From IMG/VR virus record IMGVR_UViG_2675903434_000005: DNA of 12,547 nt. One strand, given 5' to 3'. Below are positions 4,397 through 11,344 of this stretch, one piece after another. Each line of letters begins with the position of its first letter. Position 1 is the stretch's first letter. The notes under the pieces are model-generated. The model was given only the letters and a program-made list of their open reading frames with translations, searched no databases and was not told where the DNA came from. This DNA is from a virus. Lineage: Duplodnaviria; Heunggongvirae; Uroviricota; Caudoviricetes. A program made the position numbers and the translations under genes.

Positions 4397-4581
4397 TGTG
4401 CACATCCTTTTGGCATCAGACGTAAACGAGCCAGCATTGAAACAATGCATATTTTATTTAATAGCTCCCGTTCTTGTTTTCTCTTGTTAATGGCATCTTC
4501 AGTAAATACTGGGTTACTGATAGTGACACCAATTTCAAAACAACCTTCAGACGTATTAACGTTTGGTAATAACGTTTTCAT
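4393..4581 (-). CDS. dicB: DicB-like cell-division inhibitor (62 aa)
   Basis: ATG at 4581 is preceded by a GAGGA Shine-Dalgarno at 7-nt spacing. It is 62 aa and sits directly downstream of the DicF sequence on the same strand, as in the Qin dicB operon. Confidence 0.7.
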   Translation of the reverse strand: MKTLLPNVNTSEGCFEIGVTISNPVFTEDAINKRKQERELLNKICIVSMLARLRLMPKGCAQ

Positions 4582-4750
4582 TATCGCGTCCTCAACAATG
4601 AATTTTGTGATGCAGTGCCTGGTGCCTCCAGGTGACGTTAACCAGTTAACAATTAACGCCGGATACAGAGAATCCACCCATAACACTGTTTTTGGTTTTA
4701 ACTGTTCCGCGTGCGCTCAGCCGCATTCACCACATCACAAAATTCACTTT

Positions 4751-4808
4751 AAAAAGGGCGGCAGAGCAGTCACGGAGTAAAACTGATACCGCCAAACGTC
4801 ACCAGAAA
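4751..4808 (-). ncRNA. dicF: DicF small regulatory RNA (antisense regulator of ftsZ and other mRNAs)
   Basis: Minus-strand sequence TTTCTGGTGACGTTTGGCGGTATCAGTTTTACTCCGTGACTGCTCTGCCGCCCTTTTT matches the E. coli DicF sequence as I recall it, including the 3' U-tract terminator. It lies between the ydfC-like gene and dicB, as in Qin. Confidence 0.7.
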
Positions 4809-9652: not shown

Positions 9653-9821
9653 TTTTGGTTCAACTAAATACAACGTCAGTTTTGAAGAATGGCATGAACT
9701 GTTAATGGACTATGCAGAGTTACGTGGTGGCAGTGCTGCTGATGCTGAAGCATGGCGTGATGATTATGAAGCAGGAAAAACTCCGGTCGAAGCATATTGT
9801 GATGAGTGGGGCGATGAATGA
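9645..9821 (+). CDS. Small acidic Trp-rich protein (58 aa)
   Basis: Translated by hand: MADFGSTKYNVSFEEWHELLMDYAELRGGSAADAEAWRDDYEAGKTPVEAYCDEWGDE. GAGGAAG Shine-Dalgarno about 7 nt upstream; overlaps the upstream stop and ends in an ATGA overlap with the next ORF. Confidence 0.5.
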   Translation: MADFGSTKYNVSFEEWHELLMDYAELRGGSAADAEAWRDDYEAGKTPVEAYCDEWGDE

Positions 9822-10134
9822 GCGAGGTTAATTATCAGGAAGGGCATGAAACGGCGGGGCAAGCAAAAACAGTGGCATGGCGATATCGCTACGTGAAAAA
9901 AAAGGCGTTACGGACTTTCAGGGGAAGTAGTGGTCTGGTGACTGGAAATATGTACCGAAAAAAGAGGATTGTAACGACAGGCCGAACTATGAAATTCAGG
10001 CCTTATTCACTGCCCCGCCAGTCCCGGTTACATCAGAAGAACTGGTTAAAGCTGTGCACTTTTATGAACAACTAAAACGCGAAAATCCACCAGCATCCGG
10101 AAACCTGATTACAGATTCCCAGATAAGGCAATGA
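9818..10134 (+). pseudogene. Disrupted coding region: ATG-initiated frame and stop-coupled frame differ by -1 (frameshift pseudogene or programmed frameshift)
   Basis: Frame A (ATG 9818, coupled to the upstream stop) becomes Lys/Arg-rich and ends at 10075. The -1 frame holds a protein-like 67-codon stretch (WSGDWKYVPKKEDCNDRPNYEIQALF...DSQIRQ) ending in TGA 10132-10134 coupled to a downstream ATG, but has no start and follows TAG 9928-9930. A_AAA_AAG heptamers are phased in frame A at 9898-9904 and 9958-9964. Confidence 0.4.
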
Positions 10135-10304: not shown

Positions 10305-10484
10305 ATGAAAAACGCATTGCAGTTTTTGTTTGTTGCGTTCTGGTTGTTCGTATCATGTATGCCCATCATCTTCACAGCAAGGTATATGGAAAAAGTTGAT
10401 GTTTTGATATTAATATTTGGATATATAAATGCCCTTTTTTTAGGGGTGTTCATGGCGGTCATGTGCATTGAATACTGGCGGTAA
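10305..10484 (+). CDS. Small two-helix membrane protein (59 aa) on an AT-rich islet
   Basis: Part of ORF 10266..10484. Start chosen at ATG 10305, with a perfect AGGAGG 5 nt upstream. Two hydrophobic helices (ALQFLFVAFWLFVSCMPIIF and VLILIFGYINALFLGVFMAVMCI). GC is visibly lower than in the flanks. Confidence 0.55.
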   Translation: MKNALQFLFVAFWLFVSCMPIIFTARYMEKVDVLILIFGYINALFLGVFMAVMCIEYWR

Positions 10485-10500
10485 ATACAGCGAACGCCAT

Positions 10501-10534
10501 TGGTTTAGTTGGATATTTACTGTGCCGGACAAAA
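10501..10534. repeat. Downstream copy of the ~30-bp direct repeat, immediately upstream of the candidate hok promoter
   Basis: See the repeat at 10230-10258. Confidence 0.5.
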
Positions 10535-10539
10535 ACGGT

Positions 10540-10567
10540 TTGCGGGGAAATCTTAGTTAAGTAGAAT
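10540..10567 (+). promoter_or_regulatory. Candidate hok mRNA promoter
   Basis: TTGCGG (10540-10545), 16-bp spacer, TAGAAT (10562-10567). The predicted transcript start falls at about 10574, inside the 5' element that is complementary to the mRNA 3' end. Confidence 0.4.
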
Positions 10568-10686
10568 GACTGCGGGTGCTTGAGGCTATCTGTCTCAGGC
10601 ATGAACACCAAAAGGCAGATAGAGAAAAGCCCCAGTTAACATTACGCGTCCTGCAAGACGCTTAACATTAATCTGAGGCCATATCT

Positions 10687-10746
10687 ATGCGACACATAGA
10701 GATTAGCCTCTTACGGACCGAAAGGTCAAGGAGAAGCAGGCTATGA
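10687..10746 (+). CDS. Short leader ORF translationally coupled to hok (mok-like, 19 codons)
   Basis: ATG 10687 with GAGG upstream; its TGA stop (10744-10746) overlaps the hok ATG (10743-10745) as ATGA. Confidence 0.35.
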   Translation: MRHIEISLLRTERSRRSRL

Positions 10747-10898
10747 AGCAGCAAAAGGCGATGTTAATCGCCCTGATCGTCATCTGTTTAACCGTCATAG
10801 TGACGGCACTGGTAACGAGGAAAGACCTCTGCGAGGTACGAATCCGAACCGGCCAGACGGAGGTCGCTGTCTTCACAGCTTACGAACCTGAGGAGTAA
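10743..10898 (+). CDS. hokD: Hok/Gef-family type I toxin (51 aa), RelF/HokD-like
   Basis: Translated by hand: MKQQKAMLIALIVICLTVIVTALVTRKDLCEVRIRTGQTEVAVFTAYEPEE, which has the Hok/Gef signature (single TM helix, TRKxLCE, conserved periplasmic tail). AAGGAG Shine-Dalgarno upstream. Position before the Rem-like and YdfU-like genes matches Qin hokD. Confidence 0.8.
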   Translation: MKQQKAMLIALIVICLTVIVTALVTRKDLCEVRIRTGQTEVAVFTAYEPEE

Positions 10899-10967
10899 GA
10901 GACCTGGCGGGGGAGAAATCCCTCGCCACCTCTGATGTGTCAGGCATCCTCAACGCACCCGCACGTA

Positions 10968-10993
10968 ACCCGCTTCGGCGGGTTTTGTTTTTT
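10968..10993 (+). terminator. Intrinsic terminator at the end of the hok transcript
   Basis: ACCCGC-TTCG-GCGGGT hairpin followed by TTTTGTTTTTT. Confidence 0.6.
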
Positions 10994-11065
10994 CCTGGCA
11001 TTCTGGTTTACAATTCGCACGCCAGCCTGAACAACTGGCACCTGCTGCGCCAGCAGAGACAACCG

Positions 11066-11344
11066 ATGGCGCACGATACCAAATTACACAATTCTAATGA
11101 TTCTGCCGTCTTTGCCAGTAGGTGCGGACGGCGTTTTCACGCATTCAAATCAGACTGGTTCCAGCATCCTCCATGCACTGAAGAGCAGGCGGAATGGATA
11201 ATTCAGTGTTACCGCAGGCGCGGATACGAGGTTAAGAAAGCTCTTAGCCTCGACTACCGTCACTGGATAATCTCAGTCAGACTCCCTTACTCCGAACGCC
11301 CACCGCGTTCATCCCGCACATACCAGCAACGGATCTGGAGGTAA
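11066..11344 (+). CDS. Small Cys/Arg-rich protein, Rem-like by position (92 aa)
   Basis: Part of ORF 10937..11344. The first ATG lying downstream of the hok terminator is 11066; it has no strong ribosome-binding site. The stop lies 1 nt before the next gene. Sits between hok and the YdfU-like gene. Confidence 0.45.
   Translation: MAHDTKLHNSNDSAVFASRCGRRFHAFKSDWFQHPPCTEEQAEWIIQCYRRRGYEVKKALSLDYRHWIISVRLPYSERPPRSSRTYQQRIWR

Follow-up and report, generated by a model that had tools for sequence, protein, structure and literature searches.

A probable complete hok/sok-type toxin-antitoxin module, the full-length form of hokD, in an Escherichia coli lambdoid prophage

The hok/sok system has been under study since the 1980s. 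The R1 locus (hok/sok, parB) is plasmid-borne and has a demonstrated role in post-segregational killing, and Hok toxicity, its suppression by Sok and 3′ processing of the mRNA have all been demonstrated for it (PMC9841398). Among prophages, hokW-sokW (Sakai prophage 5 / phage VT2-Sakai / 933W) is an experimentally validated type I toxin-antitoxin system, in which toxicity and its suppression by Sok were demonstrated and sokW was detected and found to be functional; HokW and R1 Hok share 44% protein identity (PMC8621323). E. coli K-12 carries hokC/mokC/sokC (gef) and, in Qin, hokD (relF), which is co-transcribed with relBE (PMC3598666).

The locus described here lies at positions 10540-10993 of the window, i.e., the whole 12,547-nt stretch of viral DNA that was analysed (IMG/VR record IMGVR_UViG_2675903434_000005). 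Judged from sequence comparison, it is a complete hok/sok-type type I toxin-antitoxin module and the full-length form of hokD, a reading to which we give a probability of about 0.85. An earlier note on this DNA had read it as a stand-alone hok locus, and this was borne out by homology to hokC/mokC/sokC, R1-type hok and hokW-sokW, by a match to Rfam RF01794, by folding and by covariation. The sequence features listed in that note were all present, with slightly corrected coordinates. The elements of the module, in order along the locus, were placed as follows.

10540-10567, plus strand: proposed hok mRNA promoter, with -35 TTGCGG (10540-10545), a 16-nt spacer and -10 TAGAAT (10562-10567)
10574-10993, plus strand: predicted full-length hok (mok-hok) mRNA, ~420 nt, with a 5′ end deduced by homology and a 3′ end at the terminator
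10574-10585, plus strand: tac (translational activator element), 5′-GGGUGCUUGAGG, able to pair with fbi, with 10592-10602 or with ucb
10592-10602, plus strand: partner of tac in the nascent (metastable) 5′ hairpin, holding the 5′ copy of TCAGGCAT
10627-10635, plus strand: ucb, the anti-Shine-Dalgarno of mok (AAGCCCCAG), able to pair with the mok Shine-Dalgarno (SD) or with tac
10675-10678, plus strand: mok SD, GAGG, 8 nt before the mok ATG
10687-10746, plus strand: mok-like leader ORF of 19 codons (MRHIEISLLRTERSRRSRL), its TGA overlapping the hok ATG (ATGA)
10706-10710, plus strand: dcb (GCCUC), partner of the mok SD in the open, or Sok-target, stem-loop
10728-10733, plus strand: hok SD, AAGGAG, read from the sequence and conserved with the R1-type locus and hokC
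10743-10898, plus strand: hok toxin gene, 51 aa, product identical to K-12 HokD
10905-10928, plus strand: G+C-rich 3′-UTR hairpin seen in the fold, a likely stop for 3′ exonucleolytic trimming
10948-10960, plus strand: fbi (fold-back inhibitory element), CCUCAACGCACCC, forming twelve pairs with tac around one bulged C
10967-10993, plus strand: predicted intrinsic terminator of the hok mRNA, a 7-bp stem with 5 G:C pairs followed by TTTTGTTTTTT
10619-10693, minus strand: predicted Sok-like antisense RNA of ~75 nt, with a 5′ single-stranded tail, a long hairpin and a GGGGCUUUUCUCU 3′ end
10700-10729, minus strand: putative Sok promoter, with -35 TTGACC (10729-10724), an 18-nt spacer and -10 TAATCT (10705-10700)

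The hok product scored 82.9 bits against Pfam PF01848 (HOK_GEF; cut-off 22) and 114.7 bits against PHROG 251 ‘MokW-like host killing’. By these matches it is a small hydrophobic member of the Hok/Gef family, and would be expected to be toxic. The locus is already known, being annotated in RefSeq, and is very common. RefSeq chromosomal loci annotated hokD were 100% identical to the region (hokD product WP_000813254.1), and such a locus was held by 3,799 of 5,426 complete E. coli genomes, with roughly 12,600 loci in these genomes altogether; strain FDAARGOS_536 (NZ_CP033762) is one carrier of the prophage. A literature search found no named description of sokD or mokD. In the RefSeq locus the module has replication genes on one side and DUF968, rusA and an antiterminator gene on the other, and its strand is that of the flanking replication and antiterminator genes. 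As a moron, the module very probably occupies the early-right (nin) region of a lambdoid prophage of E. coli.

That hok is not preceded by relBE, as the earlier note had stated, was confirmed by the upstream ORFs, the identical RefSeq locus and the comparison with K-12. The ORFs at 9818-10072 and 10266/10305-10481 matched neither RelB nor RelE in Pfam, NCBIfam or PHROG, nor any other family there, and relBE annotation was absent from the identical RefSeq locus. The relBE-hokD (relBEF) operon arrangement was rejected for this locus, similarity to K-12 stopping about 18 nt upstream of the hok ATG. From that point through the coding sequence, fbi and the terminator the DNA was (near-)identical to K-12 Qin hokD, which encodes the same protein and has the same downstream neighbours (a DUF968 ydfU-type gene and an antiterminator). 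K-12 hokD lacks the promoter, tac, ucb, mok and sok and has relBE in their place, whereas the locus in the window has the full leader; fbi is still present in K-12 despite the loss of tac. The comparison shows K-12 hokD to be a truncated remnant of the present module, which is common in prophages.

The module was 90.5% identical in nucleotide sequence to hokW-sokW over 95% of the locus. Both are prophage-borne and have the same promoter, tac, 5′ hairpins, ucb, Sok hairpin, hok SD and fbi, but they differ in terminator and in the cassette that surrounds the mok start and the 5′ tail of Sok. Whereas MokW extends Hok in frame (70 aa), mok in the window has 19 codons and ends on ATGA; the Hok proteins are identical except at the C-terminus (FTAYEPEE in the window, FVDYESEK in HokW). 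Their positions in the phage also differ, in the nin region for the former and, for hokW-sokW, after small accessory genes and before a YgiW/YdeI-family gene. With K-12 hokC/mokC/sokC, the homology comprised the 5′ leader, the mok start position and the Sok position, so that sokC coordinates could be transferred to the window. Hok of hokC-type loci was 82% identical to Hok of the window, but mokC is an in-frame 69-aa extension, hokC has a second leader hairpin shorter by 18–21 nt, and the hokC 3′ UTR is unlike that of the window, IS186 coming next in K-12.

For the comparison with plasmid R1, an R1-type IncFII hok locus was used, with element definitions from PMC9841398. Tac, its metastable partner, ucb and the mok SD occurred in the same order, followed by a mok ATG 19 codons before hok, then dcb, the hok SD, hok and fbi, and the position of the antisense promoter was also shared. 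Nucleotide similarity was low outside these elements, and mean column identity in a three-way alignment of the window, R1-type hok and hokC was 65%. In R1, mok lies in the +1 frame and shares an overlap of 70 codons with hok, whereas mok of the window ends at the hok ATG.

A consensus scan for sigma-70 promoters over 10400-11100 on both strands flagged none, and the proposed hok and Sok promoters (8/12 consensus matches each) were placed by homology and conservation. Although the scan did not flag it, the claim that hok has its own promoter was supported by conservation of the -10 across unrelated upstream DNA, where homologues had TAGAAT, TATAAT, TACAAT or TAAAAT, with TTG present at -35. Similarity to many homologues started at 10554-10562, and the homology blocks began at the -10 or the transcription start and ended at fbi or the terminator. 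Position 10574 is where the Rfam RF01794 model begins, and it aligns with the 5′ ends of the K-12 hokC and R1-type hok mRNAs. The leader (10574-10745, plus strand) matched the full model (1-157) with 106.7 bits (gathering score 59), making it a hok-type 5′ leader in both sequence and structure. The Rfam ‘sok’ match was rejected as evidence for the orientation of Sok, since what the model represents is the sense-strand leader, running from the 5′ end of the mRNA as far as the hok ATG. The terminator at 10967-10993 was the only terminator-like site in 10400-11100. A sub-threshold match of the hok 3′ UTR to Rfam isrK (27 bits vs 50) was also recorded.

The setting of the module, between same-strand replication and antiterminator genes, would also suit expression mainly within the early-right transcript of the induced phage, with a role in lysis or phage release rather than in constitutive addiction. 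In hokW-sokW, mitomycin C triggers HokW in a RecA-dependent manner and HokW aids the release of Sp5 (PMC8621323). The conserved -10 and the homology block that starts from the promoter point instead to an autonomous transcript, and related modules occupy other positions in phages and are also found on plasmids. We consider such a role unlikely; it concerns the biological role of the module and is compatible with the molecular mechanism proposed below.

The minimum-energy fold of 10574-10993 had an energy of -175.2 kcal/mol (z = -7.7). The complementarity between the 5′ and 3′ ends that had first drawn notice was found as TGCGGGTGC/TTGAGG (10571-10585) against CCTCAA-C-GCACCCGCA (10948-10963), with one bulged C. 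Bases 10571-10573 are probably upstream of the transcript, which by homology would start at G10574, leaving the 12-bp pairing of tac with fbi. Folding, proposed in the earlier note as a check and run on 10574-10993, favoured this pairing, which was part of the minimum-energy structure and had an ensemble probability of 0.97-1.0; in the predicted structure, long-range tac:fbi pairing closes the full-length mRNA. Similarity to distant homologues stopped at 10960, the end of fbi.

None of the 600 control tiles of the window gave a duplex as strong as the end duplex (-21.5 kcal/mol), the best reaching -20.1. Dinucleotide shuffles of the G+C-rich 3′ region equalled or exceeded it in 17 of 1000 cases, so that its energy alone is only moderately unlikely under chance complementarity in a G+C-rich 3′ UTR. 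Decisive support came from conservation and covariation: in 51 homologues 99.0% of tac:fbi cells were paired, with a compensatory G:C to A:U change in four sequences, and the position is homologous to that of R1-type tac and fbi. Chance is refuted for the end pairing on these grounds, and the probability that it explains both the pairing and the octamer repeat is close to nil.

The octamer repeat, taken alone, may fairly be put down to chance. The earlier note had reported TCAGGCAT near both ends; the two copies were indeed present, at 10595-10602 and 10940-10947, but the repeat was not significant: the window has two matches where 0.49 would be expected, a count reached in 17 of 200 shuffles. 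Its reading as a meaningful repeat was rejected, as the 3′ copy was not conserved in distant homologues and each copy had a separate partner, the 5′ copy pairing with the 5′ element in the nascent hairpin and the 3′ copy with CCUGAGG at the hok end in the full-length fold (helix 14).

A metastable 5′ hairpin sequestering tac was found for the nascent transcript. The 33-nt fold had an energy of -16.9 kcal/mol (z = -4.6), and 99.8% of its cells were paired in 51 sequences, two pairs having changed on both sides. In Kluyvera, a G10585 to A substitution co-varied with both alternative partners of tac. In the full-length ensemble, ucb paired with the mok SD with a probability of 0.99, leaving the SD sequestered, while the hok SD paired with CUCUU at 10709-10713 (helix 6). 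The GAGG of the mok SD was invariant in 51/51 aligned homologues, and its helix with ucb (helix 4) showed compensatory changes at 10634:10674 and 10635:10673.

Alternative pairings were seen in shorter RNAs. A 67-nt fold paired tac with ucb, and trimming of the 3′ end to 10935 gave ensemble probabilities of 0.76 for tac:ucb and 0.22 for ucb:mok SD. With the 3′ end at 10940 or 10947 the closed form was still dominant, and the minimum-energy fold ending at 10940 did not show the open tac:ucb form. The closed-to-open switch is presented here as an inferred step, because the outcome depends on the trimming point and the two states of the trimmed RNA differ by 1 kcal/mol only. The tac:ucb helix was 99.7% paired yet invariant, and covariation therefore neither supports nor refutes it. 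By analogy with the R1 model (PMC9841398), the hairpin at 10905-10928 would be the likely point at which trimming stops; this hairpin (helix 16) carried a compensatory G:C to A:U change in 12 sequences. The GAGGC:GCCUC outer stem, which joins the mok SD to dcb, formed in 32/32 sequence variants of 10674-10712 (-9.6 to -16 kcal/mol), and was likewise part of both the Rfam consensus structure and the constrained open fold.

Over the fold as a whole, 94.3% of cells were paired in the 51 homologues, compared with 37–44% when partners were slid, and 27 pairs had changed on both sides compared with 12.4 ± 2.0 in shuffles. This covariation, which includes a concerted change in the two partners of the 5′ element, supports the predicted fold.

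The 19-codon ORF described earlier as coupled to hok was found with its ATG at 10687, codon 19 at 10741-10743 and TGA at 10744-10746, the hok ATG being at 10743-10745. Its start aligned with the annotated mokC start and with the R1-type mok ATG, giving a predicted mok leader ORF that begins about 19 codons before hok and has its own SD. The mok ATG was kept at its column in 84 of 85 distinct homologues, the frame being that of hok in 64, short with ATGA in 13 and +1 overlapping, as in R1, in seven; the ATGA-ended leader is therefore a minority form, one of three frame arrangements. A constant ATG with a varying frame is consistent with the published result that translation matters only as far as the hok start (PMC9841398).

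It could be argued that the 19-codon ORF is a frameshifted, broken mok and that hok is not translationally activated in this allele, given that 64 of the 85 relatives have mok in the hok frame and that, relative to these, the window allele shows a net 1-nt loss (a 2-nt deletion and a 1-nt insertion) in the cassette. The short form recurs, however, across several lineages, namely prophages of Escherichia, hokC-like loci of E. ruysiae and E. whittamii, and Erwinia. In every case it terminates precisely at ATGA, as would be expected if termination were coupled to reinitiation, and the window allele is common. A broken mok thus appears very improbable, and the ORF is better read as a short mok.

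An antisense Sok-like RNA had been expected on the minus strand around 10620-10700, and its position was supported by alignment to the annotated K-12 sokC, the ends of which map to 10693 (5′) and 10619 (3′). The predicted RNA folded with -31.9 kcal/mol (z = -5.7), and the expression of such an RNA would be in keeping with that of sokW in the 90.5%-identical relative. The promoter, which the earlier note had failed to place, is predicted to be TTGACC-18-TAATCT. At the homologous position the R1-type locus has TTGCGC-17-TATCCT, while most prophage copies have TTGCCT-17-TAACCT, and the putative start, 7 nt downstream of the -10, matched the mapped sokC 5′ end.

These elements allow a mechanism to be proposed, modelled on the R1 paradigm. 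A weak constitutive promoter, TTGCGG-16-TAGAAT, would give a ~420-nt mRNA starting near 10574, and during its synthesis tac would be tied up by 10592-10602 in a short hairpin. Once the RNA was complete, tac would pair with fbi (10948-10960) and ucb (10627-10635) would lock the mok SD (10675-10678), a closed full-length form that would neither be translated nor bind Sok. Slow 3′ trimming would take off fbi, after which tac would capture ucb and the mok SD would enter the SD:dcb stem-loop. Ribosomes would then read the 19-codon mok, stop at the UGA overlapping the hok AUG and be delivered to hok. The unstable ~75-nt antisense RNA (10693 to ~10619, minus strand) would pair with the mok start region, blocking mok and therefore hok, and trigger decay of the duplex.

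A structurally intact locus may still be a functionally silent relic, like the chromosomal hok loci of K-12. According to earlier work reviewed in a preprint, chromosomal hokA, hokB and hokC gave no post-segregational killing even with elements apparently intact (bioRxiv 10.1101/2025.08.07.668861). In the present locus the two promoters match the consensus weakly and escaped the scan, and decayed homologues exist, one with a deletion in tac (L006) and one with the mok ATG changed to ATA (L031). Against this, every element is present and pairs as expected, and 777 E. coli records preserve the exact leader cassette with at least 99% identity. Among 62 close relatives there is almost no variation in the hok coding sequence while the flanking DNA diverges, and the close relative hokW-sokW acts as a toxin-antitoxin pair (PMC8621323). 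A silent relic is on balance improbable.

The most variable part of the locus was 10679-10705 (~25 nt), which spans the mok start, the Sok 5′ tail and the Sok -10. Diversity was 0.15–0.21 in this cassette compared with 0–0.02 in hok, yet all 32 cassette variants keep the same stem-loop at similar energy, and the cassettes differed in every one of five genomes with co-resident pairs or trios. It is an even call whether 10679-10705 is a hypervariable specificity cassette under diversifying selection that prevents cross-talk between co-resident prophage hok/sok modules, leaving mok free to drift in three frames, with the window allele a natural minimal mok. Both non-cross-reacting Sok RNAs and a dispensable Mok peptide are already in the literature, and this reading is therefore a population-level refinement and not a new mechanism.

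Beyond annotation, the result matters little. It shows that reading of the raw sequence can recover the full hok/sok mRNA architecture, and it supplies coordinates for features unannotated in RefSeq, namely the hok promoter, tac, ucb, mok, dcb, fbi, and the predicted Sok-like RNA with its promoter. The variable recognition cassette and the recurrent minimal mok may be useful in relation to antisense specificity and orthogonal kill switches.

The window is part of an Escherichia coli lambdoid prophage, and the locus at 10540–10993 is a textbook system sitting at a site of a well-known kind: a hok/sok-type type I toxin–antitoxin module, in which hok is the toxin, mok the leader ORF and Sok the antisense RNA. 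Several RefSeq chromosomes carry positions 10480–11010 at 100% identity, with the gene annotated as hokD, and a prophage module validated by experiment, hokW-sokW of Sakai prophage 5/VT2-Sakai, shares 90.5% identity with the locus over 95% of the region. In that module HokW is toxic, sokW has a promoter of its own from which it is transcribed, repression needs Hfq as well as RNase III, and phage release after mitomycin C is aided (PMC8621323). All sequence features listed in the earlier note are present and its hok/sok-type interpretation is supported, and from relatives we infer the transcript ends, 3' processing, mok–hok coupling, toxicity and Sok expression.

In NZ_CP033762, the locus was flanked by phage replication genes and by a DUF968 gene, rusA and an antiterminator gene, and the prophage integration site adjoined a tRNA-Ser gene and mtfA. 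A match to the locus occurred in 4,956 of 5,426 complete E. coli genomes, with at least 80% coverage of 10480–11010 in 3,799 and a median of 2 places per genome (maximum 10). Plasmids and many sequenced phages also carry related loci, under the annotations host killer protein, MokW, gef or RelF. Elsewhere in the window, Rfam detected the DicF sRNA (4756–4807, minus strand; 76.7 bits, gathering score 48) and a sub-threshold STnc100-like match (4549–4758, minus strand; 34.4 bits, gathering score 47) directly downstream in the direction of DicF transcription, at lower plus-strand coordinates; both sit in the dicB-ydfD region of this Qin/Rac-like prophage. Just upstream of the hok promoter, an unannotated, very hydrophobic 59-aa ORF (10305–10484, plus strand; MKNALQFLFVAFWLFVSCMPIIF...) lies in an A+T-rich stretch (35–38% G+C); searches of Pfam, NCBIfam and PHROG gave it no match, and the identical RefSeq record has no CDS there. 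The main features of the locus are as follows.

10743–10898, plus strand: hok toxin ORF, encoding MKQQKAMLIALIVICLTVIVTALVTRKDLCEVRIRTGQTEVAVFTAYEPEE
10693 (5') to 10619 (3'), minus strand: predicted Sok-like antisense RNA, transferred by alignment from the annotated K-12 sokC
10729 to 10700, minus strand: putative Sok promoter, TTGACC (10729 to 10724), 18 nt, TAATCT (10705 to 10700), at a position homologous to other loci

The toxin matched Pfam HOK_GEF (82.9 bits) and PHROG 251 "MokW-like host killing". Its sequence UACGAA (10881–10886), spanning the Tyr47 codon, was invariant in 51/51 aligned homologues and predicted to be single-stranded in the full-length RNA; for hokB, hokC, hokD and hokE, UACGAA has been reported as the motif of TadA-type A-to-I editing, which changes Tyr to Cys (bioRxiv 10.1101/2025.08.07.668861).

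As the earlier note had stated, no relBE precedes the window hok, judging by the RefSeq locus annotation, the K-12 alignment, and Pfam and NCBIfam searches of the upstream ORFs. The hokD of K-12 Qin (relBEF operon) shares this DNA over a stretch that opens about 18 nt ahead of the ATG and takes in the coding sequence, 3' element and terminator, and all DNA further upstream is replaced by relE; the complete form is therefore the one in the window, and K-12 hokD is a truncated remnant. K-12 hokD (L003, 4020–4420) retains the 3' fold-back element (fbi) and terminator of the ancestral hok mRNA, although replacement of the leader by relBE removed tac, the 5' partner of fbi. The leader of K-12 hokC/mokC/sokC could be aligned to the window locus, with the mokC start at ATG 10687, and the R1-type hok of an IncFII plasmid had the same element order: tac, hairpin partner, AGCCCC, GAGGC, ATG, AGCCTCTTAC, CAAGGAGAAG, ATG, GGCTTACGAA and the 3' complement.

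The complementarity between the RNA ends, proposed in the earlier note, was borne out as 12 base pairs between tac (10574–10585) and fbi (10948–10960) with one bulged C, counting from a transcript start at G10574. Folding of 10574–10993 placed this pairing in the minimum-energy structure (−175.2 kcal/mol against a shuffle mean of −125.5; z = −7.7), with an ensemble probability of 0.97–1.0 in the full-length RNA. The bare duplex (−21.5 kcal/mol) was stronger than 600/600 control tiles of the window, yet shuffling the G+C-rich 3' region gave a duplex at least as strong in 17/1000 cases, so that the strong support for end pairing comes from the homologue comparison and not from duplex energy. The octamer TCAGGCAT, noted near both ends, is present at 10595–10602 and 10940–10947, but as a repeat it is unremarkable (17/200 shuffles). 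The hok 3' UTR (10907–10988; G+C hairpin, spacer, terminator) resembled Rfam isrK, a Salmonella Gifsy-prophage sRNA, at 27.1 bits, below the gathering score of 50; this could be chance or a common two-hairpin layout.

For the comparison, 133 related loci were gathered from genomes and viral contigs, and 84 distinct sequences spanned the whole unit. Similarity to the window typically started at 10554–10562 (the −10) or 10572 (the start) and stopped at 10960 (the fbi end) or 10986–10992 (the terminator), which indicates that the inherited unit is the transcript plus its −10. In a 51-sequence alignment, 94.3% of cells formed a standard pair in the full-length structure, compared with 37–44% when partners were slid, and 27 pairs had changed on both sides against 12.4 ± 2.0 in shuffles. 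Across these 51 sequences, pairing in tac:fbi reached 99.0%. In Kluyvera, where G10585 is A, fbi has the corresponding C to U change and the nascent-hairpin partner has changed to match; such coupled covariation is expected of an element with alternative partners. The stem between ucb (10627–10635, the anti-SD of mok) and the mok SD (GAGG, 10675–10678) showed compensatory A:U to G:C and G:C to C:G changes; the tac:ucb helix was invariant in the alignment and so uninformative on covariation. Decayed homologues included one with a deletion inside tac (L006) and a relBE-type copy in which the region of the hok start is disrupted (L044). Loci from Acinetobacter idrijaensis (L018, 275-bp contig), Xanthomonas pisi (L023, 431-bp contig) and a MAG (L056), whose Hok was 96–100% identical to the E. 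coli protein, most likely represent E. coli contamination of unrelated-genus assemblies.

The predicted partners of tac changed with RNA length. In the first 33 nt, tac folded onto 10592–10602 (−16.9 kcal/mol), and in the first 67 nt a tac:ucb stem matched the Rfam consensus. The full-length RNA was closed (tac:fbi 0.97–1.0, ucb:SDmok 0.99), and this form still dominated with a 3' end at 10940 or 10947; trimming to 10935 gave tac:ucb 0.76 and ucb:SDmok 0.22. Because the open and closed states were predicted to be 1 kcal/mol apart, a closed-to-open switch after 3' trimming is plausible rather than demonstrated. In the open form, the mok SD would pair with GCCUC at 10706–10710, giving a stem-loop that presents the mok start. 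The elements and their predicted energetics appear to reproduce the R1 model as summarised in PMC9841398.

A consensus promoter scan flagged neither the hok nor the Sok promoter. At the hok promoter (TTGCGG-16-TAGAAT, 10540–10567), the −10 TAGAAT or a close variant, with TTG at −35, was kept where the homologues' upstream DNA was unrelated. The earlier note had expected an antisense RNA around 10620–10700 on the minus strand, which agrees with the mapped sokC, and had failed to find its promoter, for which we now propose 10700–10729; the corresponding sequence is TTGCGC-17-TATCCT in the R1-type locus and TTGCCT-17-TAACCT in most prophage copies. In its predicted fold (−31.9 kcal/mol, z = −5.7), the putative antisense RNA has a long hairpin behind a single-stranded 5' tail and ends in GGGGCUUUUCUCU. 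Rfam RF01794 ('sok antitoxin (CssrC)') matched 10574–10745 on the plus strand (106.7 bits, gathering score 59), and because its span on the sense strand opens at the 5' end of the hok mRNA and closes at the hok ATG, it is a model of the hok leader rather than of the antisense RNA, and its match strand is uninformative on Sok direction. Automatic annotation from RF01794 would thus give 'sok' the wrong strand and excess length.

The 19-codon ORF starts at ATG 10687 and ends with TGA 10744–10746, overlapping the hok ATG. Among 85 distinct homologues, the start codon was kept in 84 (ATA in L031, a decayed copy) and the frame differed: mok was in frame with hok in 64 (an N-terminally extended Hok, as annotated for MokC and MokW), took the 19-codon form ending on ATGA in 13, and overlapped hok in the +1 frame, as in R1, in 7. 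Besides the window allele, Erwinia and hokC-like loci of E. ruysiae and E. whittamii had the 19-codon form. A varying frame behind a kept ATG agrees with experiments in which translation of mok was needed only as far as the hok start, over its first 19 codons (PMC9841398), and so the mok-like coupling read in the earlier note is supported, but the ATGA arrangement is allele-specific.

The mok start, the Sok 5' tail and the Sok −10 lie together at about 10675–10705, a hypervariable cassette within prophage hok loci that are nearly identical elsewhere; in the exact version present in the window, it occurred at ≥99% identity in 777 E. coli records. Nucleotide diversity among 62 close relatives was 0.15–0.21 in 10675–10704, against 0–0.02 across the hok coding sequence, and all 32 sequence variants of 10674–10712 folded into the same stem-loop (about −10 to −16 kcal/mol). 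In the five multi-copy genomes compared, the cassettes of co-resident copies always differed. This contrast in diversity, the kept stem-loop and the differing co-resident cassettes together suggest selection for non-cross-reacting Sok/target pairs.
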